A stretch of 43,756 nucleotides of DNA from positions 1-43,756 of the forward strand of contig SCTT01000232.1 in the NCBI GenBank assembly GCA_004322435.1, written 5' to 3'. This DNA comes from a bacterium. Its GTDB lineage: Bacteria; Elusimicrobiota; Elusimicrobia; UBA1565. The notes beneath the pieces were generated by a model that was given only the letters and a program-made list of their open reading frames with translations, was not told where the DNA came from and did not search any database. Below, piece after piece: positions 57-30,846 of the stretch. Position 1 is the first letter of the stretch. Every line of letters starts with the position of its first letter. The position numbers were made by a program, and so were the translations under genes.

Positions 57-3000
57 ATGCCTTCGGCGGTAGCGGTCCATCGGATCGCGCTCCTGGCCGT
101 CGCCTTGGGGGGCGCCTTTGTCACGCCCGCCCAGGCCCACGCCCCGGGGGCGCCGGGCACTCCGGCCGTGACAAACCTCTCCACCGACTCCGTCTCGTGG
201 GCCTGGACGGCGGGCCTCGACGCGGACTCCTACCAGATCTTCCTGGCTTCGAGCATGGGCGGCCCCTACCTAACGACCGCCGCGACCTCCTTCACCCATG
301 CCGGGCTCGGCCCCAACGGCCTCTCGGACATCTATGTGCGGGGGCTCCATACCGGGGAGGACGGGCCTTTCTCGGGCCGGGCGACCGCCTACAGCTCGGC
401 CGCCCTTCCCTCGGGCCTCGCGGTCTCGAGCGTCACCGGGGTCTATGCGGTGCTGTCGTGGGGCGCCGCGGGGAACCCGGCGGAGACCTTCTACGACCTG
501 CAGAAGTCCCTCGACGGCTCCTCTTTCGCGACGCACTCCACCTACACCGTGACGGTCGCCACGGTCTCGGGGCTCGCGGCGGACACCAGCCATTACTTCC
601 GGCTGCGGGCGTACAACAAGGACTCCGTGGCCACGGACTTCGCGGGTCCCGTCTCGACGAAGACGGCCCCGACCGGCGGCACTCCGCTGCCCGCCCCGCC
701 CGCGGCGCCGTCGGGCTCCGCCCTGTCGACGTCGGCGGTGTCCTGGTCCTGGGGAGCGGTCTCCGGGGCGACGGGCTACCGGGTCTCTCTGGGCACCAAG
801 AGCTACGAGTTCCTGGCCTCGACGCCCGCCGCCGCCTTCGTCCACGCCGGCCTGACCGCCAACGAGACCTCGGGCATCGCGGTCTCCGCGGTCAACGTCA
901 CCGGCGAGGGGCCGCCGTCGCCGTCGGCGGTGAAGACCACGCTGGCGATGCCTCCGACGGGGTCGTCGGCCGCCGTCGTGACGGCGAACTCCGTGACCTT
1001 GGGCTGGGGCGCCAACGGCAACCCGTCGGGCACGGTCTACGAGGTGCAGAGCACGACCGAGGGCGGCTCCTTCGCCTTCGCCGGGAACTTCAACAACGTC
1101 GGGGCGACCCTCTCCGGCCTGACCTCGGACACGACCTGGCAGTTCCGCGTGCGGGCCCAGAACCAGGACGCCGTGCTCACCGCCTTCGACGCCGTCGTGA
1201 CGACGCGCACGGGGGTGCCCTTCCCAGGCCAGCCCGGGAACCCCGCGAGCACGTTCATCTCGACGGCCGAGGTCGTCTGGGCGTGGAGCGCGGCGACGGA
1301 CGCGACGGCCTACCAGGTGCGCTTGGCGACCGCCTCGGGGACGCTCGTGGCGACGCCGACGGCGCCCGCCTACGCGCACGTCGTGGGGCCCAACGCCCTC
1401 TCCTCGCTGATCGTCCGCGGCCAGAACGCCAACGGGGTGGGGCCGTTCACCTCAACCGTGACCGTCCACACCTACGCCCGCGCGCCGACGTCTTTGGCGC
1501 TGTCGTCGGTGACCTCGCTGTTCGCGTCCCTGACGTGGAGCGCCGACGGCAACCCCGCCGGCACCACCTACCTGCTCGAGAAGTCCACCGAGGGCGGCGC
1601 GTTCGAGGCGCACTCCACCTACACGGTGACGGCCGCCACCGTCGCGGTGCTGCTCCCTTCGACGACGTATACCTTCCGCGTGCTGGCCGTCAACGACGAC
1701 CTCGTCGCGACGGCCTACAGCGGGACGGTCTCCACCGTCACCGCCGCGACCGGCGGGACGCCCCCGCCCGGGAACCCCGGCTCGCCGACGCCGACGGTGC
1801 TCTCCACCGCGGAGGTCTCCTGGGAGTGGACGGCCGCCTCCGACGCCGAGTCCTACCGGGTGTTCCTCGATTCCAAACCCGCGGAGCTCCTGACCACGGT
1901 CCCGACGACCGGGTTCATCCACGCGGAGCTGCCCATCAACTCCCGCTCCGCCATCCGCGTCCAGGCCGTCAACGGCACGGGCGTGAGCCCCCAATCGAAC
2001 GGCGCCTCGGTGTACACCAAAGCCATGGTCCCGTCGACGCCGACCTTCACGGTGGTCGGGCACGACAACGTGAGCCTCGCCTGGGACGAGCAGGGCAACC
2101 CGCCGGGGACGGAATACGAGGTCGAGGGAGCGACCGTAGGCGGCGTCTTCGACGTCCTAAGCGGCGCGACGTTCGGCGTCGTGGACCTCGCGGGCCTGCA
2201 GGGCTCGACGACCTACCAGTTCCGCATCCGCGCGCTGAACTTCGGCGGCGTCCCGACGGGCTACTCGGGCGTCGCGTCGACGCGGACCCTCGAGCCCCCG
2301 CCGCCGGCCCCCGGCGCGCCGACCCCCGTGGTGCTCTCGACGGGGGACGTCGCCTGGTCCTGGACGACGTCCACGGCGGCGGTCAGCTACGAGGTCCGCT
2401 ACGCGACGGAAGTCACCCGCCTCCTGCTCTCCACGGCCGTCGGCTCCTTCACGCTCCGCGGCCTGGGGCCCAACGAGCCTTCGGGCATCGTCGTCCGCGG
2501 CGTGAACGCGGCCGGGCCCGGGCCGCTGTCCGGCGCGGCGACCGCCTACACCTGGGCGATGGCGCCGGCGTCCCTGGCCGACGTGTCGGTCGCGTCGACG
2601 ACGCTCTATTTGTCCTGGGACGCGGCGGGCAACCCCGCCGGGACCTATTACGAGCTCCAGCGCGCGACCGACGGCGCGACCTTCCTCGCCTACTCCACCT
2701 ACACCGTCGCCGCGGCGACGGTCTCCGCGCTGGCCCCGGCGACGACGTTCGAGTTCCGCGTGCGCGCGGCCAACGGCGACGGGGTCACGACGGCGTTTTC
2801 GAACACGCTCGCGACCGGCACGGCCCCTCCTCTGCCCGGCGTGCCCGGGGTCCCCGGGACGTTCTTTCTCTCGACGGGGGCGGTGACCTGGGCCTGGACC
2901 CCGGGTTCGGACACCGTCTCCTACGAGCTGGTCCTCGACTCGGACACGGCCCAGGTGCTGGCCGCGCCGGCCGTGAGCTCGGCCACGCTGACGTTCGGCC

Positions 3001-6000
3001 CCAACGAGCGCTCGGCGGTCCGGGTCCGCGGCGTGAACGCGGCGGGCTCCGGGCCGCTGTCGGGCGTCGGCCAGGTCTACACGCTGGCGATGCCGCCCTC
3101 GGCGCTGGCGGTCACGGACGTCCAGCCCTCGGCGGTCTCGCTGTCATGGAACGCCTCCGGCAACCCCGGAGGGACGAGCTACCAGGTCCAGCTCTCCTCG
3201 GCCGGGGGCCCGTTCGGGACGGTCTCCACCGTGGGCTCGGAGTTCGCCGACGTCGGGGGCCTCTCTTCGGCGACGGCCCACTCCTTCCGGGTCCGCGCGC
3301 TCAACGGCGACGGGGTGACCAGCGCCTTCTCGAGCTCCCTGTCGACCACGACGAAGAACCTGCCTCCGGGCGTCCCCGGCACGCCGTCCGCCGCCTTCCT
3401 CTCTACTTTGTCCGTCACGTGGGCCTGGACCCCGGCGGCCGACGCCTCCTCCTACGAGGCCTTCCTCGCGAGCGAGACCGCCACGCTCGTCGCGGCGCCC
3501 GCGGTGAGCTCCTTCACTCTGACGCCGGGGCCGAACGCCCCCTCCGCCGTCGTGGTGCGGGGCGTCAACGTCGCGGGACCCGGGCCCCTCTCGGGCGCGG
3601 CGACCGTCTACACGCTCGCCGCCGAGCCGACCGGCCTCGCGGCGGTCGACGTCACCGCGAACTCGGCGGACCTCGCCTGGCAGACCGGCGGCAACCCGCC
3701 CGGGACGGTCTACCAGCTCGAGGCGTCGAGCGGGGGGCCTTACGTCTCCGCCGCGGTCACGAGCGCCCTGGGCGCCTCGTTGGCGGGGCTCTCGTCTTCG
3801 ACGGCCTACGGCTTCCGCGTCCGCGCGGTCAACGAGGACGGCGTGCCGGGGGGCTATTCGGGGGTGCTCGCCACCGCGACGCACGCGCTGGGCGGCCAGC
3901 CGGCGCCGGGCGCGACGGGCACGCCGGCGACGGTCTTGGTCTCCAGCGCGGACGTCTCCTGGGCCTGGTCCCCCGCCTCCGACGCCGACCGCTACAAGGT
4001 GTTCCCGGCCTCGAACACGGCGGTCCTGCTCGCCTCTCCGACGGCGGCCGGCGTCGTGTTCTCTGGGATGACCCCGAACCGCCCCTCCGCCGTCGTCGTA
4101 CGCGGCGTCAACGACGCGGGCAACGGGCCGCTCTCCGCGGCGGCGACCGCCTACACGCTGGCGCTGGCCCCCTCCGCCCTGGCGGTCGACGAGGTCTCCT
4201 TCACGTCGGTCACGGTGTCCTGGAGCGGCGGGGCGAACCCGGCGGGGACCGAGTACCGGCTCGAGACCTCCACCGACCTCGTGTCCTACACGCCCTATTC
4301 GACGACGACGGCCGCGTCGGCCTACGTCGGCGGCTTCTCCTCCGACACGGTCTACGGGATCCGGGTTCAAGCGGCCAACGCCGACGGCGTCCCGACCGCC
4401 TACGCGCCCGCGGTCTCGACCCGGACCTTGAGCCCCATCCCGGGCCCGACCGGCACGCCGGCCCCGGTCGTCCTCTCCACGGGCGACGTCTCCTGGACCT
4501 GGGCGGCGGCCGACCGCGCGCTCGGCTACGAGGTGAGCCTGGCCTCGGACACCCTGTCGGTCTTGGCCTCGACCGGCGCCGCCGCGGTCGTGCTGCGGGG
4601 CTACGCCCCCAACACGCTCTCCGCGATCCGGGTGCGGGGGACGAACACGGACGGCCCCGGCCCCCTCTCGGCGTCCGGGGCGGCCTACACGCTGTCCATG
4701 GTGCCGACGTCCTTGACCGGGGCGGACGCCGCGTCGACCACCCTCCACCTCGTCTGGAGCCCCGCCGGCAACCCGGCGGCCACCGACTACGAGCTGCAGA
4801 TGGACGTCGGGTCCGGGTTCTTCTACGCCGGCGCGTTCTCGGTGGCCGAGGCGACGGTCTCGGCCCTGTCGCCGGCGACCACCTACCAGTTCCGCGTCCT
4901 CGCCTACAACCACGACGGCGTCCAGACCGCGTACTCGGCGCCGCTGGCCACCGGCACCGCGCCGCCCTTCCCCGGCGCGCCCGGGACCCCCGCGGCGGCC
5001 TACGTCTCGACCGGCGTCGTCACCTGGGCCTGGACGGCGGCCTCCGACGCGGCGACGTATGAGGCGCTGCGGGCCTCGGACACCGCCTCGGTGCTGGCGG
5101 CCCCGGCGGTGAGCTCGTTCACCCTGACTTCGGGCCCCAACGAGCCCTCCGGCGTGGTCGTGCGCGGCGTCAACGCCGCGGGCGCGGGCCCGCTGTCGGC
5201 TTCCGCCACCGTGTACACGCTGGCGATGCCGCCGACGGCCCTGGCCGTCACGGCGGTCTCCGCGACCTCCGCCGAACTGACGTGGAGCGCCTCCGGGAAC
5301 GCGGGCGGGACGACGTACCACATCGAGCGCTCCACGGACGGCAGTCTCTTCTTCCCGGCCGGGGACACCGCCGCCGTCGGGGCGACGGTGGCGGGCCTGT
5401 CCTCGGCGACCGCCTACTCCTTCCGCCTCCGGGCCGAGAACGGGAACGCCGTCCTGACGGAGTACTCGAACGTCGCGGCGACCCAGACGAGCAACGCGGT
5501 CGGCCCGCTGCCCGGGCTCGCCGGGACGCCGTTCACGCTCTTCGTCTCCTCGGACGACGTCTCTTGGACGTGGGCGGGCTCCTCCGCCGCGACCTCCTAC
5601 AAGGTCTTCCCGGCCTCGAGCCCGGCGACCCTGCTCGGCGCGCCGGCGACGAACCTGTTCTCCCTCTCGGGCATGGGGCCGAACGTCCGCTCGGCCATCG
5701 CGGTCGCCGGCATCAACGCCGAGGGCGAAGGCCCGCTGTCGGCGGCCGCGACGGCGTACACCTATGCGCTGCCCCCGGCGTCGCTGGCGCTCGGCTCCGT
5801 GGGCGCGAGCTCGGTGACGCTGTCCTGGAGCGCCGGCGGCAACCCCGCCGGGACGCGCTTTAAGGTCGACGTCTCCTTCGACGGCGTCTTCTTCGTGCCG
5901 TTCACGACGACGACGGCGGTCTCGCTGGCCGCCGTCAGCCTGGCCAGCAGCACCGATTACAGCTTCCGGGTCTCGGCCTTAAACGGCGACCTGGTCGAGA

Positions 6001-9000
6001 CGGCTTTCTCGAACTCGGTGACGACGACGACGCTCTCCCCCTTGCCGGGGCCGACGGGGACCCCGTCCGCCGTCGCCGCCTCCACGGGGCATGTGACTTG
6101 GGGTTGGAGCGCGGCGGTCCAGGCCTCTTCCTACCAGGTCTATCTGGCGACCAAGACCTCGGAGCTCGTCGCGGCGCCGACGGCCGCCTCCACCGTCCGC
6201 TTCGTGGGGCCCAACCAGGCCACGTCCATCGTCGTGCGGGGGACGAACACCTTCGGGGCCGGGCCCCTGTCGGGGGCGGCGACGGCCTACTCCTGGGCGA
6301 AGCCGCCGACGTCGTTGGCGCTGACGGCTGTTTCTTCGGCGGCGGTCGGACTCTCGTGGAGCGCGAACGGCAACCCGGCGGGGACCGTCTATGAGCTGCA
6401 GCTCTCGACCGACGGCGCCGCCTACGCGGTGTTCTCGACGATGACCGCGGCCGCGGCGAGCGCGGACCTGGCGGCCTCGACCACGTATTTCTTCCAAGTG
6501 CGGGCGCGGAACGCGGACCTCGTGAACACGGCCTTCGCGGCGGCCGTGTCGACGCGGACTTTGCCGCCTCTGCCGGGGACGCCGGGGACGCCCTTCACGG
6601 CCTCGGTGTCGACGGGCGGGGTGGCCTGGGTCTGGGCGGGGGGCGCGGACGCGGCGTCCTATCAGGTGTCGTTGGCGTCCAACACCGCGGAGCTCTTGTC
6701 CTCGCCGACGACGAATACGTTCCTCAAGGTCCTCGGCCCTAACGAGCCCTCGGGCGTGGTCGTGAGGGCGCTCAACGCCACCGGCTCCAGTCCGCTGTCG
6801 GCCTCGGCGACGGCCTACAGCTGGGCGAAGGCTCCGACGTCCTTCGCGCTGACGTCCGTGTCGTCCTACGCCGTGGGCCTGTCTTGGTCGGCCAACGGCA
6901 ACCCGGCGGGCACCGTCTACGAGCTCCAGCTCTCCACCGATGGCGCGGCGTACTCTCCGTTCTCGACCACGACCGCGGTCTCCGTGAGCGCGGCCCTGTC
7001 GGCCTCGAGCACCTATTTCTTCCAGGTGCGGGCGCGGAACGCGGACCTCGTGGACACGGCCTTCGCGGCGGCCGTGTCGACGCGGACTTTGCCGCCTCTG
7101 CCGGGGACGCCGGGGACGCCTTTCGCGGCCTCGGTGTCGACGGGCGGGGTCGCCTGGGTGTGGGCGGGGGCGGCGGACGCGGCCTCGTACCAGGTCTCGT
7201 TGGCGTCCAACACCGCGGAGCTCCTGTCCTCGCCGACGACGAACACGTTCCTCAAGGTCCTAGGGCCCAACGAGCCCTCGGGCGTGGTCGTGAGGGCGCT
7301 CAACGCGACCGGCTCCAGTCCGCTGTCGGCCTCGGCCACGGCCTACAGCTGGGCGAAGGCTCCGACGTCTTTTGCGCTGACTTCGGTGTCCTCGGCGGCC
7401 GTGGGCCTGTCCTGGTCGGCCAACGGCAACCCGGCGGGCACCGTCTACGAGCTCCAGCTCTCCACCGACGGCGCGGCGTACTCTTCGTTCTCGACCATGA
7501 CGGCCGTGACGGCGAGCGCGGTCCTCTCGCCTTCGAGCACTTATTTCTTCCAGGTGCGGGCGCGCAACGGCGACTTGGTGACCACGGCCTTCGCGGCGGC
7601 CGTGTCGACGCGGACTTTGCCGCCTCTGCCGGGGACGCCGGGGGCGCCTTTCACGGCGTCGGTGTCGACGGGCGGGGTGGCCTGGGTGTGGGCCGGGGCG
7701 GCGAACGCGGCCTCGTACCAGGTCTCGTTGGCGTCCAACACCGCGGAGCTCCTGTCCTCGCCGACGACGAACACCTTCCTCAAGGTCCTCGGCCCCAACG
7801 AGCCTTCGGGGGTGGTCGTGAGGGCGCTCAACGCGACCGGCTCTGGCTCGCTGTCGGCCTCGGCCACGGCCTACAGCTGGGCGCAGGCTCCCGCGTCGTT
7901 GGGGCTGACCGCGGTGACGTCGGGGACGGTGGGGCTGTCCTGGTCGGCCAACGGCAACCCGGCCGGGACGGTCTATGAGCTGCAGCGCTCGACCGACGGG
8001 ACGACCTTTGCGGCGTTCTCCACGTACACCGCGGCGGCGGCGACCGCGGGGGGGCTCGCGGCCTCGACGACGTACTTCTTCCAGGTCCGGGCCCGCAACG
8101 GCGACCTCGTGACCACGGCCTTCGCCGCCGCGGTGTCGACGCGCACGCTGCCGCCCGTGCCGGGGGCGCCCGGGACGCCCTTCACGGCGTCGGTGTCCAC
8201 CGGCGGCGTGGCCTGGGTCTGGGCTGGGCTCGCGGAAGCGGCCTCCTACGAGGTCGTGCTGGCGACGAAGGTCTCCGAGGTCCTGGCCGCGCCCACGACG
8301 AACGCGACGACGCGCGTGTCAGGGCCCAACGAACCCTCGGCCATCAGCGTCCGGGCCCTGAACCCGAGCGGGGCAGGCCCTCTGTCTTCGGCGGCGACCG
8401 CCTACTCTTGGGCGATGCCGCCGGCGTCGCTGGCCCTGACGGCGGTCTCCTCGGCGGCGGCGGGGCTCTCCTGGAGCGCGAACGGAAACCCGGCGGGGAC
8501 GCTCTACGAGCTGCAGCTCTCGCTCGACGGGTCGGCGTACGCGCCCTACTCGACGTATGCGGTGACGGGGGCGACCCCGGCGCTGGCGGCCTCGACGACG
8601 TACTACTTCCGGGTCCGGGCCCGCAGCGGGGACGCGGTGGACACGGCCTTCGCGTCGGCCGTCTCGACGTCCACCCTCCCGCCGGCGCCGGGCCAGCCCG
8701 GAACCCCGGTGGGCGCCGCGCTGGGCGTCGCCTCCGTCTCATGGACCTGGGGGGCGGCGGCCGACGCGTCGGGCTACTCCGTCTTCGTCGCCTCAGACCT
8801 CGTCGCGGCGGCGTCCACGACGGCCTCCGCCTCCTACCTCGAGCTGGGCCTGTCCCCCAACGTCCCGGCGGGGCTGGTCGTCGCGGGCGTCAACCCGTCG
8901 GGCCAGGGGGCGCTGTCCGCGGCGGCCACGGTCTACACGCTCGCGATGCCGCCGGCGTCCTTGGCGCTGACGGCGGTGTCCTCGTCGGCGGCGGGCCTGT

Positions 9001-11189
9001 CGTGGAGCGCGAACGGCAATCCCGCGGGGACCCTCTACGAGCTCCAGCTCTCCCCGGACGGGTCGGCGTACACGACGTTCTCGACCTACGCGGTCGCCGC
9101 GGCGACGCCCGCGCTTTCGGCGTCGACGACGTATTTCTTCCGGGTCCGGGCGCTCAACGGGGACCTGGTGGCCACGGACTTCGCTCCGGCGGTCTCGACG
9201 CGCACGTTCCCGCCGGCCCCCGGCCAGCCCGGGACTCCCGCGGGGACGGCGCTCGGGACCTCGTCTATCTCCTGGACCTGGGCCGTGGCGACGGACGCGG
9301 CCGGCTACGCCGTCTTCGCCGCGTCGAGCCCGGCGCTGGCGGTCGCCGCGCCCGTCGCCGCGGCCTTCTCGCAGACGGGCCTCGCGCCCAACACGGCGGC
9401 CGGGCTCTTGGTCGCCGGCGTCAACCCGTCGGGGCAGGGCCCGCTCTCGGCGGCGGCCACGGTCTACACGCTGGCCGCCGTCCCCTCCGGCGCCGCCGCC
9501 CCGGCCGTCCATCAGACGAGCGCATCCGTCTCCTGGGGCTTAAACGGGAACCCCGCGGGGACCCTCGCGGAGATCCAGCGCTCCACGGACGGCGCGGCGT
9601 TTACGGCGTTCCAATCGACGACCGCGACCGGCCTGACGATGACGGACCTCCTCGTGTGCGCGAGCTACTGGGTCCGGGTCCGGAACTTGAACGGCGACGG
9701 CCTGCCGACCGCCTACGACGGCGCGGCCTTCCTGACCCTTCCTTCGACCCCCACCGCGCCGGGAGGGCTCTCCGCCGCCCCGCTGGCGGGGAATCGGGTG
9801 TCTCTGTCGTGGACCCCCTCGGGCTCCGAGAGCGTCACCGAGTACCGCCTCTACTGGGACTCGGGGACCGGGACGGTCTCTTACGCCTCCCCGCTGGCGG
9901 TCGTGCCCGCGACGATGACGAGCCACCAGACCGCGGTGCTGGCCTCGAGCGCCGCCTACCGCTTCGCTCTGCGCGCCTTCAACCGCTGCGGCCTCGAGGA
10001 GGCCAACGTCGGCGTGCTGGCCTCCGCGCCGTCGTTGACCTCGCTGACCGGGGTCAAGGCCGCGCCCACGGCCCCGCTGAGCGGCCAGCGCGTCAAAGGC
10101 GACCGCGTGACGGTGGCCGCCGGACGGACCCTCGGCGCGGCCTCCGACGTCGTCCGCGTGCTGTTCCAGTACAAGGCCTCGAGCGCGTCGGCGTGGGCGG
10201 ACATCCCGGCGGTCGGAGGCGACGCGAACCCCGACACGTCGGAGCCGTACTACGTCCACTGGAACGCCGACGGACTGGGGCTGGCCGCGGCGCAGTCCTT
10301 CGACCTGCGCGCGGTGGCCTACGACGTGTCGGGCGCCTCGGACGCCGCGCCGAGCGCGGTGACCGTGTCGGTCGTGACCGCCGCCGCGACCGATTACGAC
10401 GTGGCCGAGGGGCTGGTGGGCGGGAAGCTGCAGAAGTCCCAGGTCCTCGACAACACCGTGACGACCACGCTGCAGACGGGCGGGTCCGTGCCGACGAGCC
10501 TGACCATCCCCGCGGGGGCCCTCGACTCGGGCCAGGCGACGGTCGCGGTGGTCAACGACCCCGGCGTCCTCTCGGGGACGCCGACCGGGGCCGAGTCCGC
10601 CGGCACCGCGGTCCAGATCACCTTGTCGGGCGGGCAGACCCAGCTCGCCAACGGCAAGACGGCCGCGGTGACGTTGGGCTATCCCGACGCCGACGGCGAC
10701 GGGTTGGTGGACGGCACGACGCTGCGCGCCGACCGCCTGGTGATGTTCTCCGCCCCGGCGCTCGCCGGGCCCTGGACCCGGGACTTCGGCTCGAGCGTGG
10801 ACGCGGCCGGCAAGAGCGTGACGGGGAACACCCCGCACTTCAGCTTCTTCGCGCTCTTCGCCGTCGCCTCGGCCAGCCTCGACGCCCTGCGCGTCTACCC
10901 CGTCCCCTACATGCCCAACGGCGGCAACGCCGACCAGGGCGTGCCCTTCGCCGCGGGCAACCCGAACTCAGGAATCGTCTTCGACAACCTGCCCAACTCC
11001 GTCACCATCAAGATCTACACCGTCACCGGCCAACGGGTGGCCCAGTTCGGCTCGGGCTCCTCGGGCGGCAAGGTGCAGTGGGACGTGAAGAACGACCGCG
11101 GCCAGGACGTGGCCTCCGGAGGCTACATCGCCGTCATCACGAGCCCGGGCGCGAACCCGGTCACGAAGAGGATCCTCGTCGTCCGATGA
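57..11189 (+). CDS. Giant (3710 aa) secreted cell-surface repeat protein: signal peptide, about 37 FN3-like modules, Ig-like region, T9SS/FlgD-Ig-like C-terminal sorting domain
   Basis: Uninterrupted 11.1-kb ORF with an SD-like purine tract upstream. The N-terminus MPSAVAVHRIALLAVALGGAFVTPAQA looks like a signal peptide. It has 18 alternating copies of module A (..STxxVxWxW..DAxSYxV..PNxxSxxxVRGVNxxGxGPLS) and module B (..LSWxxxGNPAGTxYELQxSTDG..STTYxFRVRAxNxD). All other ORFs overlapping this span are Arg/Gly/Pro-rich artefacts. Confidence 0.93.
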   Translation: MPSAVAVHRIALLAVALGGAFVTPAQAHAPGAPGTPAVTNLSTDSVSWAWTAGLDADSYQIFLASSMGGPYLTTAATSFTHAGLGPNGLSDIYVRGLHTGEDGPFSGRATAYSSAALPSGLAVSSVTGVYAVLSWGAAGNPAETFYDLQKSLDGSSFATHSTYTVTVATVSGLAADTSHYFRLRAYNKDSVATDFAGPVSTKTAPTGGTPLPAPPAAPSGSALSTSAVSWSWGAVSGATGYRVSLGTKSYEFLASTPAAAFVHAGLTANETSGIAVSAVNVTGEGPPSPSAVKTTLAMPPTGSSAAVVTANSVTLGWGANGNPSGTVYEVQSTTEGGSFAFAGNFNNVGATLSGLTSDTTWQFRVRAQNQDAVLTAFDAVVTTRTGVPFPGQPGNPASTFISTAEVVWAWSAATDATAYQVRLATASGTLVATPTAPAYAHVVGPNALSSLIVRGQNANGVGPFTSTVTVHTYARAPTSLALSSVTSLFASLTWSADGNPAGTTYLLEKSTEGGAFEAHSTYTVTAATVAVLLPSTTYTFRVLAVNDDLVATAYSGTVSTVTAATGGTPPPGNPGSPTPTVLSTAEVSWEWTAASDAESYRVFLDSKPAELLTTVPTTGFIHAELPINSRSAIRVQAVNGTGVSPQSNGASVYTKAMVPSTPTFTVVGHDNVSLAWDEQGNPPGTEYEVEGATVGGVFDVLSGATFGVVDLAGLQGSTTYQFRIRALNFGGVPTGYSGVASTRTLEPPPPAPGAPTPVVLSTGDVAWSWTTSTAAVSYEVRYATEVTRLLLSTAVGSFTLRGLGPNEPSGIVVRGVNAAGPGPLSGAATAYTWAMAPASLADVSVASTTLYLSWDAAGNPAGTYYELQRATDGATFLAYSTYTVAAATVSALAPATTFEFRVRAANGDGVTTAFSNTLATGTAPPLPGVPGVPGTFFLSTGAVTWAWTPGSDTVSYELVLDSDTAQVLAAPAVSSATLTFGPNERSAVRVRGVNAAGSGPLSGVGQVYTLAMPPSALAVTDVQPSAVSLSWNASGNPGGTSYQVQLSSAGGPFGTVSTVGSEFADVGGLSSATAHSFRVRALNGDGVTSAFSSSLSTTTKNLPPGVPGTPSAAFLSTLSVTWAWTPAADASSYEAFLASETATLVAAPAVSSFTLTPGPNAPSAVVVRGVNVAGPGPLSGAATVYTLAAEPTGLAAVDVTANSADLAWQTGGNPPGTVYQLEASSGGPYVSAAVTSALGASLAGLSSSTAYGFRVRAVNEDGVPGGYSGVLATATHALGGQPAPGATGTPATVLVSSADVSWAWSPASDADRYKVFPASNTAVLLASPTAAGVVFSGMTPNRPSAVVVRGVNDAGNGPLSAAATAYTLALAPSALAVDEVSFTSVTVSWSGGANPAGTEYRLETSTDLVSYTPYSTTTAASAYVGGFSSDTVYGIRVQAANADGVPTAYAPAVSTRTLSPIPGPTGTPAPVVLSTGDVSWTWAAADRALGYEVSLASDTLSVLASTGAAAVVLRGYAPNTLSAIRVRGTNTDGPGPLSASGAAYTLSMVPTSLTGADAASTTLHLVWSPAGNPAATDYELQMDVGSGFFYAGAFSVAEATVSALSPATTYQFRVLAYNHDGVQTAYSAPLATGTAPPFPGAPGTPAAAYVSTGVVTWAWTAASDAATYEALRASDTASVLAAPAVSSFTLTSGPNEPSGVVVRGVNAAGAGPLSASATVYTLAMPPTALAVTAVSATSAELTWSASGNAGGTTYHIERSTDGSLFFPAGDTAAVGATVAGLSSATAYSFRLRAENGNAVLTEYSNVAATQTSNAVGPLPGLAGTPFTLFVSSDDVSWTWAGSSAATSYKVFPASSPATLLGAPATNLFSLSGMGPNVRSAIAVAGINAEGEGPLSAAATAYTYALPPASLALGSVGASSVTLSWSAGGNPAGTRFKVDVSFDGVFFVPFTTTTAVSLAAVSLASSTDYSFRVSALNGDLVETAFSNSVTTTTLSPLPGPTGTPSAVAASTGHVTWGWSAAVQASSYQVYLATKTSELVAAPTAASTVRFVGPNQATSIVVRGTNTFGAGPLSGAATAYSWAKPPTSLALTAVSSAAVGLSWSANGNPAGTVYELQLSTDGAAYAVFSTMTAAAASADLAASTTYFFQVRARNADLVNTAFAAAVSTRTLPPLPGTPGTPFTASVSTGGVAWVWAGGADAASYQVSLASNTAELLSSPTTNTFLKVLGPNEPSGVVVRALNATGSSPLSASATAYSWAKAPTSFALTSVSSYAVGLSWSANGNPAGTVYELQLSTDGAAYSPFSTTTAVSVSAALSASSTYFFQVRARNADLVDTAFAAAVSTRTLPPLPGTPGTPFAASVSTGGVAWVWAGAADAASYQVSLASNTAELLSSPTTNTFLKVLGPNEPSGVVVRALNATGSSPLSASATAYSWAKAPTSFALTSVSSAAVGLSWSANGNPAGTVYELQLSTDGAAYSSFSTMTAVTASAVLSPSSTYFFQVRARNGDLVTTAFAAAVSTRTLPPLPGTPGAPFTASVSTGGVAWVWAGAANAASYQVSLASNTAELLSSPTTNTFLKVLGPNEPSGVVVRALNATGSGSLSASATAYSWAQAPASLGLTAVTSGTVGLSWSANGNPAGTVYELQRSTDGTTFAAFSTYTAAAATAGGLAASTTYFFQVRARNGDLVTTAFAAAVSTRTLPPVPGAPGTPFTASVSTGGVAWVWAGLAEAASYEVVLATKVSEVLAAPTTNATTRVSGPNEPSAISVRALNPSGAGPLSSAATAYSWAMPPASLALTAVSSAAAGLSWSANGNPAGTLYELQLSLDGSAYAPYSTYAVTGATPALAASTTYYFRVRARSGDAVDTAFASAVSTSTLPPAPGQPGTPVGAALGVASVSWTWGAAADASGYSVFVASDLVAAASTTASASYLELGLSPNVPAGLVVAGVNPSGQGALSAAATVYTLAMPPASLALTAVSSSAAGLSWSANGNPAGTLYELQLSPDGSAYTTFSTYAVAAATPALSASTTYFFRVRALNGDLVATDFAPAVSTRTFPPAPGQPGTPAGTALGTSSISWTWAVATDAAGYAVFAASSPALAVAAPVAAAFSQTGLAPNTAAGLLVAGVNPSGQGPLSAAATVYTLAAVPSGAAAPAVHQTSASVSWGLNGNPAGTLAEIQRSTDGAAFTAFQSTTATGLTMTDLLVCASYWVRVRNLNGDGLPTAYDGAAFLTLPSTPTAPGGLSAAPLAGNRVSLSWTPSGSESVTEYRLYWDSGTGTVSYASPLAVVPATMTSHQTAVLASSAAYRFALRAFNRCGLEEANVGVLASAPSLTSLTGVKAAPTAPLSGQRVKGDRVTVAAGRTLGAASDVVRVLFQYKASSASAWADIPAVGGDANPDTSEPYYVHWNADGLGLAAAQSFDLRAVAYDVSGASDAAPSAVTVSVVTAAATDYDVAEGLVGGKLQKSQVLDNTVTTTLQTGGSVPTSLTIPAGALDSGQATVAVVNDPGVLSGTPTGAESAGTAVQITLSGGQTQLANGKTAAVTLGYPDADGDGLVDGTTLRADRLVMFSAPALAGPWTRDFGSSVDAAGKSVTGNTPHFSFFALFAVASASLDALRVYPVPYMPNGGNADQGVPFAAGNPNSGIVFDNLPNSVTIKIYTVTGQRVAQFGSGSSGGKVQWDVKNDRGQDVASGGYIAVITSPGANPVTKRILVVR
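141..10002 (+). repeat. Coding tandem array of FN3-like modules, (A-B)x18 plus one divergent FN3; boundaries approximate
   Basis: I counted 18 W-x-W type-A modules, each followed by a GNPxGT type-B module, with a period of about 176-190 aa. A final module, LSWTPSGSESVTEYRLYWDS..YRFALRAFNRCG, follows. Confidence 0.8.
6561..8147 (+). repeat. Three near-identical in-frame 528-bp (176-aa) tandem units, a recent amplification inside the giant gene
   Basis: Unit starts (ttgccgcctctgccgggg...) are at 6561, 7089 and 7617, exactly 528 nt apart. Nucleotide identity looks above 90% by eye. The antisense ORFs 7013-7339 and 7541-7867 are near-duplicates offset by 528 nt. A fourth, more diverged unit begins near 8148. 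Confidence 0.85.
10887..11186 (+). other. C-terminal sorting domain (T9SS type-A CTD / FlgD-Ig-like) of the giant protein
   Basis: LRVYPVPYMPNGG...VTIKIYTVTGQRVAQF...VQWDVKNDRGQDVASGGYIAVITS...KRILVVR. This resembles the Por_Secre_tail / FlgD_ig pattern (..IYdvsGrlV..WdGkndsGqpvasGvY..). Confidence 0.6.
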
Positions 11190-12547
11190 AGACCACGGCC
11201 CTCCTCGCCCTCCTCCTCGCCCTGGCCCCTGCGGCCCGGGCCTCCGGCGCGGGCGCGGACCCCTTCAACTTCCTCTTCCTCGACGCCGGCGCCCGCCCGG
11301 TCGCTCTGGGCGGCGCCTATACGTCGCTGGCCGACGACGCCGACTCCCTGCTCTATAACCCGGCCGGACTGGCCGTCCCGCGCCGGCACCAGGCGACCTT
11401 CATGCACAACCAGCATTTCTCGGGGATCACCCAGGAGTACGCCGCCTATGCCTCGCCGTGGGGCCTGGGCCTCAACCTCAATTCGCTCAACTTCGGCGAG
11501 GCGACGCGGACGACGTATGCGAACCCGACGGGCGCGGGCCTGGGCAAGGTCGCGATGAACGACCTGGCCTTCGGCGCCGGATACGGCCGCGAGGTCCTCG
11601 GGGTCCGCGCCGGGGTCGGGTTCAAGTACATCCGGGAGTTCATCGCCGGCGTGACCGCCGACGGCTATGCGTTCGACTTAGGTCTCCAGCGCGACTCGGC
11701 GCTGCTGCCGGGCCTGACGCTCGGCGCGGCGCTCCAGAACCTCGGGCCCGCGGTCCGCTTCCAGCGCGTCGACGAGAAGCTGCCGCTGAACCTGCGCACG
11801 GGCGCCTCCTACCGCTTCAGCGCCTTCGGACAGCCCTCGGCGCTCGCCTTGGACGTCACCAAGGAGCGTTCGGAGTCCCCGCTCGTCGGCGCGGGCTTCG
11901 AGGTGGCGGCCATGGGATTTATGCCCCTGCGCCTGGGGCTCTCGACGCGCAACCAGGCCGGCCCCGGCGTCACCGCCGGGCTGGGCTGGCGCTACGGCGG
12001 GCTCGGCGTCGATTACGCCTTCGTCCCCTACGGGGACCTCGGGATGGCGCACCGCTTCAGCCTGTCCTGGCGCTGGGGCGCGGACCCCGAGGAGCGCCAG
12101 GACCGAGAAGACCGGGACGACCGGGAGGACCCGGCGCCCAAGCCGCGGCCCCGCGTCTTCGCCCCGCCCGACGCGAACGCGCGCTTCGCGGCCGCCGAGC
12201 GCGCCCGCTCCGCCGGCGACGTCAAGGGAGCCCGCCGGGAGCTCGAGGCGGCGCGGCGCCTCTTGGCCTCCGACGACCGCCGCCAGGTGCTCTATCTGAC
12301 GCGCTACGGCGAGCTCTCCTACGACGAGGGCGAGACCGACGACGCCCGGGAGCTCTTCTTGGACGCCATCCGCCTGGCGCGCCGCATCGACACGACCGGC
12401 CCGGCGGTGTCCGGCGCCTACATCGGGCTGTCGCGCTGCCTGGCCGACGCCGGCCAGAAGCGGGGCGCGCACGACGCGCTGCTCAAGGCCCTCGAGGCCG
12501 GTCCCACGGAGCGCCAGCGCGCCGAGATCGAGAAGCGTCTGCGCTAG
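11186..12547 (+). CDS. PorV/PorQ-family (FadL-like) outer-membrane beta-barrel with an acidic linker and TPR-like C-terminal extension (453 aa)
   Basis: The ATG overlaps the giant-gene stop (ATGA at 11186-11189). The signal peptide is MKTTALLALLLALAPAARA. The N-terminal motif FLFLDAGARPVALGGAYTSLADDADSLLYNPAGLA is typical of PorV/PorQ-like proteins. Alternating beta-strand-like sequence runs to ..HRFSLSWRWGA. Then come DPEERQDREDRDDRED and a helical repeat-like tail. Confidence 0.75.
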   Translation: MKTTALLALLLALAPAARASGAGADPFNFLFLDAGARPVALGGAYTSLADDADSLLYNPAGLAVPRRHQATFMHNQHFSGITQEYAAYASPWGLGLNLNSLNFGEATRTTYANPTGAGLGKVAMNDLAFGAGYGREVLGVRAGVGFKYIREFIAGVTADGYAFDLGLQRDSALLPGLTLGAALQNLGPAVRFQRVDEKLPLNLRTGASYRFSAFGQPSALALDVTKERSESPLVGAGFEVAAMGFMPLRLGLSTRNQAGPGVTAGLGWRYGGLGVDYAFVPYGDLGMAHRFSLSWRWGADPEERQDREDRDDREDPAPKPRPRVFAPPDANARFAAAERARSAGDVKGARRELEAARRLLASDDRRQVLYLTRYGELSYDEGETDDARELFLDAIRLARRIDTTGPAVSGAYIGLSRCLADAGQKRGAHDALLKALEAGPTERQRAEIEKRLR

Positions 12548-12598
12548 GGGGCCCAAAGGTCCCAGAGCGCGTCCGGCAAGCCGCGGTAACATATCCCG

Positions 12599-13543
12599 GT
12601 GAACCCCGCCGCCCTCGGCGCCGCGCTGGCGCTGGCCCTCCCCACCTCCCTGCCGCCCTCCGCGCCGGCCGACTCCGTCGGGGCCGTCCTCCGGGACTCG
12701 TCCGAGCGCGCCGCGCTGGCCGAGGTCTTGGACGGCCGGCTCGTGCTGGCCGCCGACGCCAAGGAGGACGAGGCGGTCTTCTATAAGGAAGCGCTGCGCA
12801 CCCTCCTTAAGACCCCCACCGGCCGCTCGCTGGCCGAGGCCTTCGCCGACCTCCCCGGAGGCCCCGTGACGGTGCGCTTCGAGAGCCTCGAGCGCATCGG
12901 TGGGAAGGCGGTCGCCGAGGACGGCAAGGACGCCGTCGTGCTTGGCCGCACTTTGCTCTCCTGGAAGCCGGAGTGGGCGGCGCAGCAGGGCGCCGGCCTC
13001 CTGGCCCACGAGCTGCTCGGCCACATGCTCTCGTCCCGCCGCGCGCGAGCGGCCGGCGTCGGCTGGGAGCACGCGGCCTGCCTCGAAGACGAGGTGGACG
13101 CCGGCCTCGTCGGCACCTTGGTGACGCTCGAGGCGGGGTGGCGCTTCTTGGACCCAGGGGCCGAGAGCCTGCTCAAGGACCGCCCCGCCTACGAGGCCGA
13201 GCTCCAGTGGCGCCAGCCCGAATACGCCGTCGCGCTCCGGGACGCGGAGCTCGCCGACCCCCGCGGGGCGCTGCGCGCGCGCCTCGCCCAGGTCGAAGGG
13301 CGCTTCGACACGCCCCAGACGCGCGAGCTCTTCGGCCGGGCCCTCCGGGAGCGCCTCGACTTCCTCGAGTCCCGCCCGGACGTCCGCCAGTCGCTCGCGG
13401 ACTACGCCGCCCATCCCTTCCACCGCGAGATGGAGGCGGCCATCGTCCTGCGCCTCGCGCGCCTGCGCACGCTGGCCCCACCGCCTCCCGAGGACCAGTC
13501 GCCCCTCTCGGGCGACGCCGAAGCCGCCCTCGCCCCGCACTGA
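12599..13543 (+). CDS. Secreted hypothetical protein with an HExxH (HELLGH) zinc-metallopeptidase-like motif (314 aa)
   Basis: GTG start. The N-terminus MNPAALGAALALALPTSLPPSAPA is hydrophobic. A single HELLGH motif is present, and the codon usage is GC3-rich. No family was recognised by eye. Confidence 0.6.
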   Translation: MNPAALGAALALALPTSLPPSAPADSVGAVLRDSSERAALAEVLDGRLVLAADAKEDEAVFYKEALRTLLKTPTGRSLAEAFADLPGGPVTVRFESLERIGGKAVAEDGKDAVVLGRTLLSWKPEWAAQQGAGLLAHELLGHMLSSRRARAAGVGWEHAACLEDEVDAGLVGTLVTLEAGWRFLDPGAESLLKDRPAYEAELQWRQPEYAVALRDAELADPRGALRARLAQVEGRFDTPQTRELFGRALRERLDFLESRPDVRQSLADYAAHPFHREMEAAIVLRLARLRTLAPPPPEDQSPLSGDAEAALAPH

Positions 13544-13560
13544 GCGCAGCGGGCGGACGC

Positions 13561-13589
13561 TTGACGGGCCCGCGCCGCGCCCCCATACT
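13561..13589 (+). promoter_or_regulatory. Sigma70-type promoter TTGACG-N17-CATACT placed 6 nt before the GTG start, implying a leaderless mRNA
   Basis: TTGACG is at 13561-13566, followed by a 17-nt spacer and CATACT at 13584-13589. The start codon GTG is at 13596, with no SD in between. Confidence 0.5.
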
Positions 13590-13595: not shown

Positions 13596-14246
13596 GTGGC
13601 GAGGCTGACCCTTTCCACCGACGAAGGCGAGCGCGAGGACCCGGACGGCCCCGCGGTCGACGCCGCTTTGGCCCGGCTCGCGGCGGAGTCCGAGGCCTAC
13701 GCGCTGCTGTCCTCGGAGACGGGCGAATACCTGCAGGCGACACGCAGCGCGGGGCGCCTGTCCTTGGAGCGCCAGGAGGGCAGCGCGCGCCTGTCGTGGG
13801 ACGGCGAGCCGGCCGCGTCCGAGCTCGCCTCGGCCTTCTCGGGGTTCCTCGCGGGGAGCGGGGAGTGGCGCGCGCATCCGCGCTGGAAGCGGTCCACCGA
13901 CGAAGACGCGGCGCGGGAGCACCGCCAGGCGCTCTTGGAGCTTCTGGGCGCGGCCCCACTCAAGGTCCCCAGCGCCCCCGACGGGACCCTCCTGTCGTCC
14001 ACCAACGGCGAGGTCACCGCGCTGCTCGCCTTCGCCTCCGAGGCCGCGCTCGCCGAGGCCTGCCCGGGGGCCGGGATGCTGACGGTCGAGGCCGCCCGCC
14101 TGCTCGCTCTCTTCCTCGCGGCGCCCCAGCAGGTCCTTTTCGTCGAGGCCGGTGCCGACTGGGTGAGCATCGACAAGGCCGAGGCCGCGGCGCTCGCGGA
14201 GCTCATCCAAGCCCCCCCGGGAGGGGGGGGTAAAAATCAGGCCTGA
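13596..14246 (+). CDS. Cytoplasmic hypothetical protein whose C-terminal half is SseB-like (216 aa)
   Basis: No signal peptide. The C-terminal half (..NGEVTALLAFASEAALAEA..LLALFL..VLFVEAGADWVSI) resembles the SseB / T3SS-chaperone-like pattern. This assignment is weak. Confidence 0.5.
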   Translation: MARLTLSTDEGEREDPDGPAVDAALARLAAESEAYALLSSETGEYLQATRSAGRLSLERQEGSARLSWDGEPAASELASAFSGFLAGSGEWRAHPRWKRSTDEDAAREHRQALLELLGAAPLKVPSAPDGTLLSSTNGEVTALLAFASEAALAEACPGAGMLTVEAARLLALFLAAPQQVLFVEAGADWVSIDKAEAAALAELIQAPPGGGGKNQA

Positions 14247-14347: not shown

Positions 14348-14944
14348 ATGCGCGTCTGGTCCCTGGCGTTGCTCTGTGCCGTCTTGGCCGGCTCTCCCGT
14401 CCTCGCCGGCCGTTCCCTTGAATCCCTGAAGTCCGCCGAGCCGCTCGCCGGCGCCGCCGCGCGCCTGGGAGTGGACGCCGTCCCGGCCCTGCCCGCCGGC
14501 GCGCCGGTGGCCGCCCCGGCCCCGGCCCCGGACTTCACCGTCTTGCGCGTCAAGCCGGACCCGGACAAGACCCCCGGGCGCCTGTGCACCACCGACGACC
14601 CCGACTTCCTCGAGTTCCGCTATCCCGAGCGCATCCCCTACTGCAAGCGCCACGTGACGAAGGAGGAGAAGCGGCGCGTCGCCGCGGCATACGGCATCCC
14701 CGAGTCCGAATGGCCCAACTACGAGTTCGACCACCTGATCCCGCTGGGCATCGGCGGCTCGAGCCTCGACGAGAACATCTGGCCGCAGCCCCGCGGCGAC
14801 GACGAGGCCGAGGGGAAGGACAAGCTCGAGCTGGCGCTCTACAAGGCGCTCGCGGCGGGCACCATCACCCAGGCCGAGGCCGTGCGCCGGAACATGGCGT
14901 GGTTTGAGGCGCGCGGGCTCCTGCTGCGCCGCCCCAGCATCTAG
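14348..14944 (+). CDS. Secreted HNH-family endonuclease (198 aa)
   Basis: SD GGAGG lies about 8 nt upstream. The signal peptide is MRVWSLALLCAVLAGSPVLA, followed by an Ala/Pro linker. The HNH core is YEFDHLIPLGIGGSSLDENIWPQP. Confidence 0.75.
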   Translation: MRVWSLALLCAVLAGSPVLAGRSLESLKSAEPLAGAAARLGVDAVPALPAGAPVAAPAPAPDFTVLRVKPDPDKTPGRLCTTDDPDFLEFRYPERIPYCKRHVTKEEKRRVAAAYGIPESEWPNYEFDHLIPLGIGGSSLDENIWPQPRGDDEAEGKDKLELALYKALAAGTITQAEAVRRNMAWFEARGLLLRRPSI

Positions 14945-15584: not shown

Positions 15585-15619
15585 GGGGGGCGGCTCCTTG
15601 GAGCCGCCCCCCTTTCGTT
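15585..15619 (+). terminator. Rho-independent terminator
   Basis: GGGGGGCGGCTCC / GGAGCCGCCCCCC form an inverted repeat (12-13 bp stem), followed by TTTCGTT. It lies 18 nt after the stop of the Spy-like gene. Confidence 0.75.
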
Positions 15620-26650: not shown

Positions 26651-26996
26651 CGCCGTCGAGGGCGCCGTCCTGGCCCTCGCGGCCGGGGCCGCGTCCTGGG
26701 CGCTTCTGGGGCCGGGGAGCCGGGGCCGGGCCGCCGTGGGCCTGGGCCTGGCCTGGGGGGTGTCGACGGCGAGCATCGCCCTCCTCGCTTTGACCCGCGG
26801 GGGGTCTTTCCAGACCTTCCTGCGGGGGTTCGGGGCGGGGGTGGGCTTAAGGGCCTCGGTCCTCGTGCTGCTCGTCGCGGCGACGTGGAGCGAGGGTTGG
26901 GAGGGGCAGGCGCCCCTGTTGAGCGCGTACGTGCTGGGAACATTGGGGCTGTTCACCCTCGAGGTGCGGCACCTGAGGCCTGAGAAGAGACCATGA
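26616..26996 (+). CDS. atpI: ATP synthase protein I-like membrane protein (126 aa; start uncertain)
   Basis: It has four hydrophobic helices and sits between atpZ and atpB. Its stop overlaps the atpB ATG (ATGA). GTG 26616 overlaps atpZ by 35 nt. Confidence 0.55.
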   Translation: MASNRLRPLAASAVEGAVLALAAGAASWALLGPGSRGRAAVGLGLAWGVSTASIALLALTRGGSFQTFLRGFGAGVGLRASVLVLLVAATWSEGWEGQAPLLSAYVLGTLGLFTLEVRHLRPEKRP

Positions 26997-27802: not shown

Positions 27803-27809
27803 CGCGCAC

Positions 27810-27830
27810 CGGCCGCGCAGGGCGCGGCCG
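27810..27830 (+). promoter_or_regulatory. Intercistronic GC hairpin between atpB and atpE
   Basis: CGGCCGCG-N5-CGCGGCCG is a perfect 8-bp stem in the 92-nt atpB-atpE gap. It may be an mRNA stability or processing element. No T-tract follows. Confidence 0.3.
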
Positions 27831-27894
27831 AGGTCGGACCCGGCCCGCCGAGCCGTTTCGCGAGGCCGTAAGCCGTAAACAGAGAGGAACTTAG

Positions 27895-28188: not shown

Positions 28189-28268
28189 GACCGCGGCGGG
28201 GGCTCCCCGAGGGGGAGCCCCCGCCCGGCACCGATTTGAAGCACCCTGAGAGAACGTAAGGAGCCGAC

Positions 28269-29314: not shown

Positions 29315-29331
29315 AGACGAGGGCATCAACC

Positions 29332-30845
<1,514 letters not shown>

Positions 30846-30846
<1 letters not shown>

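Follow-up and report, generated by a model that had tools for sequence, protein, structure and literature searches.

Contig SCTT01000232.1, a 43,756-bp piece (72% G+C) of an Elusimicrobiota metagenome-assembled genome (MAG), carries near its start a gene for a 3,710-residue protein, and the stop codon of this gene overlaps the start codon of a gene for a predicted outer-membrane beta-barrel. We call the whole contig the window, the giant protein the cargo and its partner the barrel. The cargo ends in a C-terminal domain (CTD) that resembles the type-A sorting domains found in type IX secretion systems (T9SS), and the barrel scores as a member of the PorV/PorQ family. A two-gene cassette of cargo and barrel recurs throughout Elusimicrobiota, for which type IX secretion is not known. 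By analogy with known systems, we propose with a probability of about 0.6 that the cassette consists of a cargo and its own CTD-binding anchor barrel, in which the CTD would be retained, would dock on the cognate barrel and would tether the giant protein at the cell surface. We favor an anchor barrel because the CTD is closest to that of PorZ, which is uncleaved and anchored on PorQ, and because the barrel scores higher against the PorQ model than against the PorV model.

An earlier reading of the DNA of the window (the original prediction) had proposed that cargo and barrel are a dedicated, cargo-specific pair. Whether each CTD gene has an adjoining barrel of its own was examined from both sides with our own hidden Markov models (HMMs) of the CTD and the barrel. 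The barrel-first test covered 89 loci, namely 80 loci of species-representative genomes found with the barrel profile plus the loci collected earlier, and a barrel lay directly downstream of 71 of the 72 open reading frames (ORFs) that ended in a CTD. For the CTD-first test, 80 metagenome loci were picked by CTD peptide patterns alone; 64 of them were paired, 1 was at a contig edge and 15 were unpaired. When the CTD scored at least 130 bits and the contig extended past the stop codon, all loci were paired (46/46), and the unpaired CTDs were distant ones in tandem arrays on a few contigs. The adjacency thus recurs in about 135 independent loci, and therefore it is not a matter of chance. These counts support a dedicated, cargo-specific pair, and at the level of gene organization the analogy with cargo–shuttle pairs of the SprB/SprF type, which had also been drawn, holds.

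In the first relatives that were inspected, the giant gene overlapped the barrel start by 4 nt, the last 100 residues of the cargos were near-identical, and the passenger was built of FN3 domains (L001, a cargo of 5,888 residues) or of Kelch/FG-GAP repeats (L006, a cargo of 4,360 residues). The junctions in most related loci are 0–20 nt long or are ATGA overlaps, and several MAGs carry at least three pairs. The identity matrices of CTD and barrel co-vary (Mantel r = 0.71, reached by 0 of 2,000 permutations), as is expected for any two linked genes that are inherited as a unit. All-against-all clustering of flank ORFs, which is coarse since greedy ORF calling is unreliable at 72% G+C, found no third conserved gene within 10 kb on either side. 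The flank-ORF clusters that recurred were the barrel (67 loci) and the cargo (65 loci), followed by antisense ORFs or generic response regulators. All close homologs of the barrel came from Elusimicrobia/Elusimicrobiota MAGs. Some of them are labeled "PorV/PorQ family protein" by NCBI, and some cargo fragments are labeled "T9SS type A sorting domain-containing protein". A word-based protein search with the 400-residue C-terminal module returned 14 matches under its word filter, and the locus scans were far more informative.

More distant loci showed other arrangements. In one lineage (CTD 78–110 bits; contigs Ga0208977_1000137, Ga0208977_1000237 and Ga0156443_120), several CTD proteins of about 1,430 residues stand in tandem arrays (L137, L143, L144, L146, L148, L150, L151, L155, L156, L160 and L164). 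A PorV-like barrel follows only some of these array cargos (L148, L150), and the ratio of cargo to barrel is apparently many-to-one there. Divergent pairs were also seen in MAGs classified only as "bacterium" (L076, L081, L082, L084–L088). They have a PorV-like barrel of about 600 residues (about 30% identity, 100–130 bits) and, 90–210 nt upstream of it, an ORF of about 1,540 residues whose C-terminus weakly matches the CTD HMM (22–35 bits). The cassette may thus extend beyond Elusimicrobiota. One locus labeled Omnitrophota (L042) has a pair that is very Elusimicrobia-like, and this may be due to mis-binning.

The last 100 residues of the cargo had been described as similar to T9SS type-A and FlgD-Ig domains, and this resemblance is present, with marginal scores on the HMMs of these families, which the domain passes or nearly passes. 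With TIGR04183 (Por_Secre_tail, cut-off 23 bits), the window CTD scored 22.1 bits over its last ~75 residues when searched within a 729-residue fragment and 25.4 bits when the last 110 residues were searched in isolation. The scores with PF13860 (FlgD_ig, 20 bits) and PF18962 (16.7 bits) did not reach the Pfam cut-off of 27. The 729-residue fragment matched the PorZ model at its C-terminal end with 35.9 bits. Among 21 related CTDs, all 21 matched the C-terminal end of the PorZ model, 19 matched TIGR04183 (E ≤ 0.01) and 18 matched FlgD_ig. The window CTD had no CHU_C match in the Pfam scan, and 12 of the 21 relatives had weak ones. When a profile of the 21 CTDs was searched against the PDB, it matched residues 667–758 of PorZ (5M11, E = 1.9e-7) in an alignment that reached the last residue (...AVIR vs ...IIR), and it matched residues 1083–1154 of PorU (6ZA2) more weakly (E = 0.013). 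Judged by profile, the window CTD is related to the solved seven-stranded beta-sandwich CTD of PorZ, which is its closest counterpart, followed by the CTD of PorU. The match to the CTD HMM extends to the last residue in at least 70 loci. In the alignment of related CTDs, the ...VVKK..IIR end is conserved and the terminal arginine is invariant. Among T9SS proteins, PorZ and PorU are the two whose CTDs are retained, and PorQ and PorV anchor these two proteins (PMC5562754, PMC10202324). Since the window CTD resembles these retained CTDs, no processing peptidase is called for.

The barrel gene starts within the cargo stop codon (cgATGAag), as had been noticed, and its product contains the motif GARPVALGGAYTSLADDADSLLYNPAGLA. 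A PorV/PorQ-type N-terminal motif and a beta-barrel had been predicted, and the barrel matched NF033709 (PorV/PorQ family) with 132.1 bits against a cut-off of 90, with residues 27–296 covering model positions 4–325 of 326. All 17 barrel homologs tested matched the same model, and a profile of these 17 matched PorV of Flavobacterium johnsoniae (6H3I_F) with E = 1.8e-18. The barrel also passed PF03687 (UPF0164, 27.3 bits, cut-off 21.4), and its C-terminal third matched TPR_12, a tetratricopeptide repeat (TPR) family, with 30.3 bits. It did not reach the equivalog cut-offs of PorQ (NF033711, 79.3 vs 220 bits), PorV (NF033710, 25.1 vs 250 bits) or PorV2 (NF052325, 40.1 vs 325 bits). There was no match to PorP/SprF in the Pfam and NCBIfam scans of the window barrel, and PF11751 appeared only in the precomputed domain lists of two homologs.

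In the AlphaFold2 (AF2) model of the barrel (ma8eb46878610; mean predicted local distance difference test score, pLDDT, 81), 14 long strands span residues 68–297, and a disordered linker (303–327) leads to a TPR bundle (330–452) of seven helices with pLDDT 93–98. Foldseek placed FadL (2R88, 3PGR), TodX, CymD, OmpG and chains of Bacteroidota beta-barrel assembly machinery (BAM) complexes at the top for the barrel, and it matched the TPR domain to Hop TPR2A and CTPR. The likeness to FadL is at the fold level only, as the Pfam scan of the barrel gave no match to the OMPP1/FadL/TodX family. The most conserved segment of the barrel (residues 25–66) is modeled with low confidence. We compared this segment with the hatch of FadL in the light of published accounts of FadL-type barrels (PMC8407342, PMC12611786). 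From its family scores and its predicted fold, the protein is a FadL-superfamily barrel of the PorV/PorQ family and not an ortholog of PorV or PorQ. An unrelated porin was rejected given the NF033709 score, the profile match to PorV and the FadL-type fold matches. The periplasmic ends of the homologs vary: a TPR domain (proteins of ~455 residues), no extra domain (~305 residues), an OmpA domain (PF00691; P0111/P0112) or HEAT repeats (P0096). We also considered that the TPR domain clamps the invariant ...IIR terminus in the way that the TPR of Hop clamps EEVD. This idea was set aside, because short barrels that lack a TPR domain pair with the same CTD.

The cargo is a giant protein with a signal peptide, as originally described, and its N-terminus is signal-peptide-like by inspection (MPSAVAVHRIALLAVALGGAFVTPAQA, followed by HA after the presumed cleavage site). 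Pfam fn3 matched the cargo with 476 bits in 17 stretches, and our own motif count gave 18 di-FN3 units of ~177 residues (about 36 FN3 domains), in agreement with a repeat spacing of 528–531 nt in the DNA. Tandem Repeats Finder returned nothing on this gene, because the period of ~530 nt is above its 500-nt limit; the repeats were therefore counted by a repeat search and by motifs. The identity between units 13 and 14 is 93% (window 6400–7500, residues ~2177–2530), and units 12–16 are 48–69% identical to one another, which points to recent internal duplication. The number of repeats in the gene carries an assembly risk, as repeats may be collapsed or mis-counted.

The last ~645–900 residues of the window cargo are 40–50% identical to those of cargos from over 60 loci, one of which is L006 with its Kelch passenger. 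The conserved stalk in this region holds one FN3 domain and ~320 residues for which neither Pfam nor the PDB gave a match; fn3 was the only Pfam family in the stalk, and its PDB matches were of FN3 type only. Among 31 cargos, the passengers contained fn3 (27), Kelch propellers (5), NosD/beta-helix (4), Peptidase_S41 (1) and Peptidase_S8 (1), and SBBP, NHL and G8 domains were found too. The cargos are modular, with ~645 C-terminal residues in common and differing passengers. The features of the cassette and of the HExxH gene that follows it are listed in Table 1.

Table 1. Positions of the cassette and of the HExxH gene in the window, with the basis of each assignment
Feature	Coordinates	Strand	Basis
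Cargo gene, 3,710 aa (signal peptide, FN3 array, conserved C-terminal module, CTD)	57..11189	+	ORF, translation, Pfam fn3
Probable Sec signal peptide of cargo, aa 1-27, presumed cleavage after AQA	57..137	+	Inspection of translation
Variable passenger, 18 tandem di-FN3 units of 176-182 aa	144..9251	+	DNA repeat spacing, motif spacing, unit identity matrix, Pfam fn3
Conserved stalk, aa ~3066-3610 (~545 aa)	9252..10886	+	Alignment with cargos carrying different passengers
CTD, aa 3611-3710, T9SS type-A-like and PorZ-like, invariant ...R-COOH end	10887..11186	+	TIGR04183, PorZ model, 5M11/6ZA2 profile matches
ATGA stop/start overlap of cargo and barrel (translational coupling)	11186..11189	+	Sequence cgATGAag
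Barrel gene, 453-aa PorV/PorQ-family outer-membrane protein with C-terminal TPR domain	11186..12550	+	NF033709, PF03687, TPR_12
Most conserved barrel segment, aa 25-66 (DPFNFLFLDAGARPVALGGAYTSLADDADSLLYNPAGLA...), FadL/PorV-type N-terminal segment with NPA motif	11258..11383	+	Invariant alignment columns
Predicted 14-stranded beta-barrel, aa 68-297	11387..12076	+	AF2 model, Foldseek
Charged disordered linker, aa 298-329 (...EERQDREDRDDREDPAPKPRPR...)	12077..12172	+	pLDDT <50 at aa 303-327; variable and gapped in alignment
TPR helical domain, aa 330-453, presumed periplasmic	12173..12544	+	Pfam TPR_12, AF2 model, Foldseek
Gene for 314-aa HExxGH...E protein	12599..13543	+	ORF; no Pfam/NCBIfam match
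HELLGH motif, aa 137-142	13007..13024	+	Sequence; invariant in both family alignments
Glu165, candidate third zinc ligand, in the helix after the HExxH helix	13091..13093	+	Invariant in 15 diverse members; ligand role presumed

The original prediction joined a third gene to the pair, for a HELLGH protein said to start 51 nt after the barrel gene. The motif is there, and the gap is 48 nt. The HExxH protein had no Pfam or NCBIfam match, including the PorU-type sortase model NF033707, and a PDB sequence search gave nothing relevant. A word-based search found ten homologs, all at least 50% identical, and an exhaustive HMMER search raised the family to 166 representative proteins at 50% clustering (including P0134–P0279). 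Many members are 510–570 residues long, with an extra N-terminal region of ~170 residues and signal-peptide or lipobox-like starts, and in the ten members scanned no Pfam family was above threshold. Across the family alignments, which include 15 diverse members, H137, E138, G141, H142 and E165 do not vary; the last is a glutamate 23 residues after the second histidine. In the AF2 model (pLDDT 87), a sheet of three strands is followed by the HExxH helix (124–151) and a helix with the glutamate (162–178). The Foldseek matches were weak and all to zincins, MATCAP being the best (E = 7e-3, TM ~0.2), followed by PprI, abylysin, meprin, PPEP-1 and the BoNT light chain. Similar to gluzincins and minigluzincins, the protein combines an invariant HExxGH and downstream glutamate with a predicted topology of sheet, HExxH helix and glutamate helix; it differs from gluzincins in that it has no sequence match to a described peptidase family and that its fold matches are weak. 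By motif and model it looks like a member of an undescribed gluzincin-like family and is probably a secreted metallopeptidase.

The gene trio had been expected to be syntenic, and this expectation holds for the cargo–barrel pair across Elusimicrobiota. The HExxH gene stands beside the barrel only in the window and in its close relatives L008 and L009. L004 has a barrel with 76% identity, directly after which comes the homolog of the next gene of the window (13596..14246), and the flanks of the two loci align at ~76% identity across a gap of ~1,035 bp (window 12522–13555). The gene was also not found in 160 other loci, either with a narrow or with a broadened HMM, and in the material examined, the 166 family representatives showed no link to the cassette. 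Because the HExxH gene is missing from L004 across aligned flanks and from the 160 other loci, it is a lineage-specific insertion and not a cassette component, and the trio as a unit was rejected.

In the proposed mechanism, cargo and barrel would both be exported by Sec, as their N-termini suggest by inspection. The barrel would insert in the outer membrane, and its TPR domain is predicted to hang into the periplasm on the disordered charged linker. The cargo would be a surface protein, with a variable passenger, a stalk of ~545 residues and a putative beta-sandwich CTD of ~100 residues that is a homolog of the type-A CTDs of T9SS. This CTD would, by homology and analogy, stay on the cargo and dock non-covalently on the cognate barrel, which would tether the giant protein to the cell surface, as do the partners in PorZ–PorQ, PorU–PorV and the type-B cargos with PorP/SprF. 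The ATGA overlap would provide coupled, near-stoichiometric synthesis of cargo and anchor. The outer membrane could be crossed via an unlinked translocon or via the barrel itself together with BAM. The HExxH gene would be separate from the cassette.

Several points weigh against this proposal. The curated models give the CTD marginal scores (TIGR04183 22–25 bits; PF18962 and PF13860 below cut-off), and the barrel is below the equivalog cut-offs of both PorV and PorQ. Surface exposure, binding of the CTD to the barrel and retention of the CTD rest on homology and analogy, and co-variation of linked genes is no proof of contact. A folded FN3 array of 3,710 residues has no obvious way through a 14-stranded barrel. 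Moreover, every CTD protein in Bacteroidota needs the SprA/Sov translocon and the PorKLMN motor, and none of these is in the 43.8-kb contig. It had been stated that the window lacks core T9SS genes, and indeed none of the T9SS core families was matched by those other window ORFs that were scanned with HMMs.

Other explanations of the locus have to be weighed against an anchor barrel. The genome might encode a complete T9SS at another place, to which the pair would be an accessory, with export by SprA/Sov and PorKLMN and the barrel as a private PorV-type shuttle; we regard this as unlikely, though deserving serious thought. Both the CTD and the barrel have homologs among the parts of the T9SS, and in Bacteroidota CTD proteins occur where the T9SS core does (PMC10202324). 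As the window covers only 43.8 kb of a MAG, the missing core genes there say little. Nevertheless, TXSScan found T9SS in Bacteroidetes only, among 2,484 genomes (PMC4793230), and reviews confine it to Bacteroidota or the FCB group (PMC10202324, PMC12398890). Our literature search gave no link of Elusimicrobia to PorV, T9SS, SprA, GldK or PorK, and no T9SS gene cluster recurred in the 10-kb flanks on either side of 80 genome loci, which is not a direct scan of the genomes. If the T9SS were indeed encoded elsewhere, the locus would be a T9SS in a new phylum and not a new system. Alternatively, the cassette could be self-sufficient, with the barrel, possibly with BAM and the periplasmic TPR domain, translocating and anchoring the cargo in the manner of a split autotransporter or a two-partner system. 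Conservation is confined to two genes, which are found in varied genomic contexts and more than once in a genome. Their pairing is strictly one-to-one and translationally coupled, and a long conserved C-terminal module (~645 residues) adjoins the CTD. The periplasmic interaction domain is interchangeable (TPR, OmpA, HEAT or none), and FadL-family barrels have a lateral opening, which BamG uses to hold a surface lipoprotein (PMC12611786). On the other hand, folded FN3 or Kelch domains would not fit through the lumen of 14 strands with its N-terminal plug, the short barrels without a periplasmic domain are paired in the same way, so that the TPR domain is not essential, and there is no energy source. 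To our knowledge, no FadL-family barrel is a protein translocator. We consider self-sufficiency improbable.

The other two alternatives concern the single genes. The original prediction suggested that the HExxH protein could take part in CTD processing, and a role as processing or maturation enzyme of the cassette would fit a gene that shares the strand, follows after 48 nt without an intervening terminator-like site and has the same position in L008 and L009; it would also fit the invariant HExxGH...E, the zincin-like topology of the model and the signal-peptide or lipobox-like N-termini of family members. The comparison with L004 and the 160 other loci does not support this claim. The protein also has no homology to PorU, and the CTD resembles the retained CTDs of PorZ and PorU more than cleaved ones. 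We judge such a role very unlikely. Hardest to credit is an ordinary role of the barrel in FadL-type import of hydrophobic nutrients, as has been proposed for the Treponema UPF0164 proteins, with a functionally meaningless position beside the giant gene. It is true that PF03687 was matched above its cut-off, that FadL, TodX and CymD were the best fold matches and that FadL-like proteins of Treponema pallidum carry a periplasmic TPR extension as well (PMC8407342). However, about 135 independent loci keep the CTD gene abutting the barrel start, the barrel resembles PorV/PorQ in sequence and not FadL itself, and CTD and barrel co-vary.

The genes around the cassette were inspected too. Directly downstream of the HExxH gene is a gene for a 216-residue protein without signal peptide (13596–14246, +), which had no Pfam/NCBIfam match and is kept beside a Metal_resist gene in L004 and L009. 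A promoter-like site (TTGACG-17-CATACT, 13561–13589) lies upstream of it. Since this site is also kept in L004, the 216-residue gene appears to start a transcription unit separate from the cassette. Between this gene and the Metal_resist gene (PF13801, 14986–15567) is a 198-residue ORF (14348–14944, +) with a signal-peptide-like start and a DHLIP...N stretch that is HNH-like by eye; it had no Pfam/NCBIfam match and is missing at this place in L004 and L009, a second small indel. Directly after the Metal_resist gene is a perfect, G+C-rich hairpin of 12 bp (15585–15612), which has T-runs on both strands and resembles a bidirectional terminator. The remaining ORFs of the window are, by eye, genes for ATP synthase, dehydrogenases, an aminotransferase and similar proteins. 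The stretch ~26990–35400 was recognized by eye as the operon of an F-type ATP synthase (a, c, b, delta, alpha, gamma, beta, epsilon). The operon is apparently split between alpha and gamma by a 151-residue secreted-looking ORF (30846–31301, no Pfam match) and by an NAD-dependent epimerase-like gene (31298–32230), and a small PilZ-like reading frame lies just upstream of the beta subunit. Two adjoining genes for M16 (insulinase-type) peptidases, with active as well as inactive domains in each, are at 36911–39708; they are of the typical secreted/periplasmic kind, and no link to the cassette was found.

We came across no account of this cassette or its phylum-wide rule in the literature. Reviews restrict T9SS-type CTDs and their PorV-family partners to Bacteroidota, where all type-A CTDs share one generic PorV (PMC10202324, PMC12618676). 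In Elusimicrobiota, by contrast, each type-A-like CTD has a private barrel. Therefore, the combination of a type-A/PorZ-like CTD with a private PorV/PorQ barrel, under a gene logic like that of type B, is new, and some of the proteins have already been named by the NCBI pipeline. It is a tentative and rather doubtful idea, though not a far-fetched one, that Elusimicrobiota and some unclassified lineages have a T9SS-independent two-gene display system in which the barrel with BAM suffices to surface and hold the cargo. PorV, PorQ and PorP/SprF would then descend from such pairs, and the SprA translocon and the PorKLMN motor would have been added later. Should these genomes lack the T9SS core, the cassette would be a minimal CTD/barrel system that could be rebuilt from two genes, which would open CTD recognition and anchoring to direct tests, and it would also be a candidate for the ancestor of the shuttle and attachment modules of the T9SS. 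With the core present, the T9SS would be extended to Elusimicrobiota. Either way, the pairing gives a rule for annotating the largest genes of Elusimicrobiota MAGs, and it links the Treponema UPF0164 outer-membrane proteins of the "FadL-like plus TPR" type to the PorV/PorQ family.

Among known systems, the attachment complex of Porphyromonas gingivalis offers the closest parallel in the parts. In PorZ–PorQ and PorU–PorV, the type-A CTD stays on the surface protein, which a 14-stranded barrel of the PorV/PorQ family holds on the outer membrane (PMC5562754, PMC10202324). The best curated and PDB matches of the window CTD are to the PorZ CTD, and the barrel scored 79 bits with PorQ and 25 bits with PorV. 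The window parts are nevertheless below the equivalog cut-offs of PorQ (220), PorV (250) and PorZ (260), and they come from Elusimicrobiota rather than Bacteroidota, with a TPR tail on the barrel. PorZ and PorU are machinery components that depend on the full T9SS and are not giant adhesin-like cargos. We also know of no translational coupling of their genes to porQ or porV.

The gene organization is closer to that of type-B CTD cargos with PorP/SprF (SprB–SprF of Flavobacterium johnsoniae; PG1035–PorP), in which a large adhesin-type cargo gene lies beside its own cognate 14-stranded anchoring barrel. Type-B cargos are gene-linked to cognate PorP/SprF shuttles (PMC10202324, PMC12618676). Their CTD is probably uncleaved, and a region larger than the ~100-residue CTD is needed or conserved (PMC10202324 and PMC12618676, which cite PMC9143113). 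Unlike in type B, the window CTD is type-A/PorZ-like and not of the CHU_C (PF13585)/TIGR04131 type, and the barrel is of the PorV/PorQ family. BamG–BamH in the BAM of Bacteroidota is another case in which a FadL-family barrel, BamG, holds a surface-exposed protein and does not import lipid (PMC12611786). It differs in that BamH is a lipoprotein held by its N-terminus with no CTD, and in that BamG is part of BAM and not of a cargo cassette. The BAM-complex chains among our fold matches were 9hiv_F, 9n2d_B and 9hjm_F, which we take to be BamG.

Similar to the window barrel, TP0548, TP0859 and TP0865 of T. pallidum (UPF0164) belong to the 14-stranded barrels of the FadL superfamily. They have an NPA-type segment at the N-terminus and, in the periplasm, an alpha-helical C-terminal extension with TPR motifs, and this extension was reported to be unique among FadL members (PMC8407342). 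The UPF0164 outer-membrane proteins of T. pallidum, three of which have the TPR extension, are vaccine candidates (PMC8407342). They have been proposed to be nutrient importers, and no CTD-bearing partner has been described for them, in which they differ from the barrels of the cassette. The treponemal UPF0164 proteins may be protein anchors of the PorV/PorQ type rather than lipid importers.

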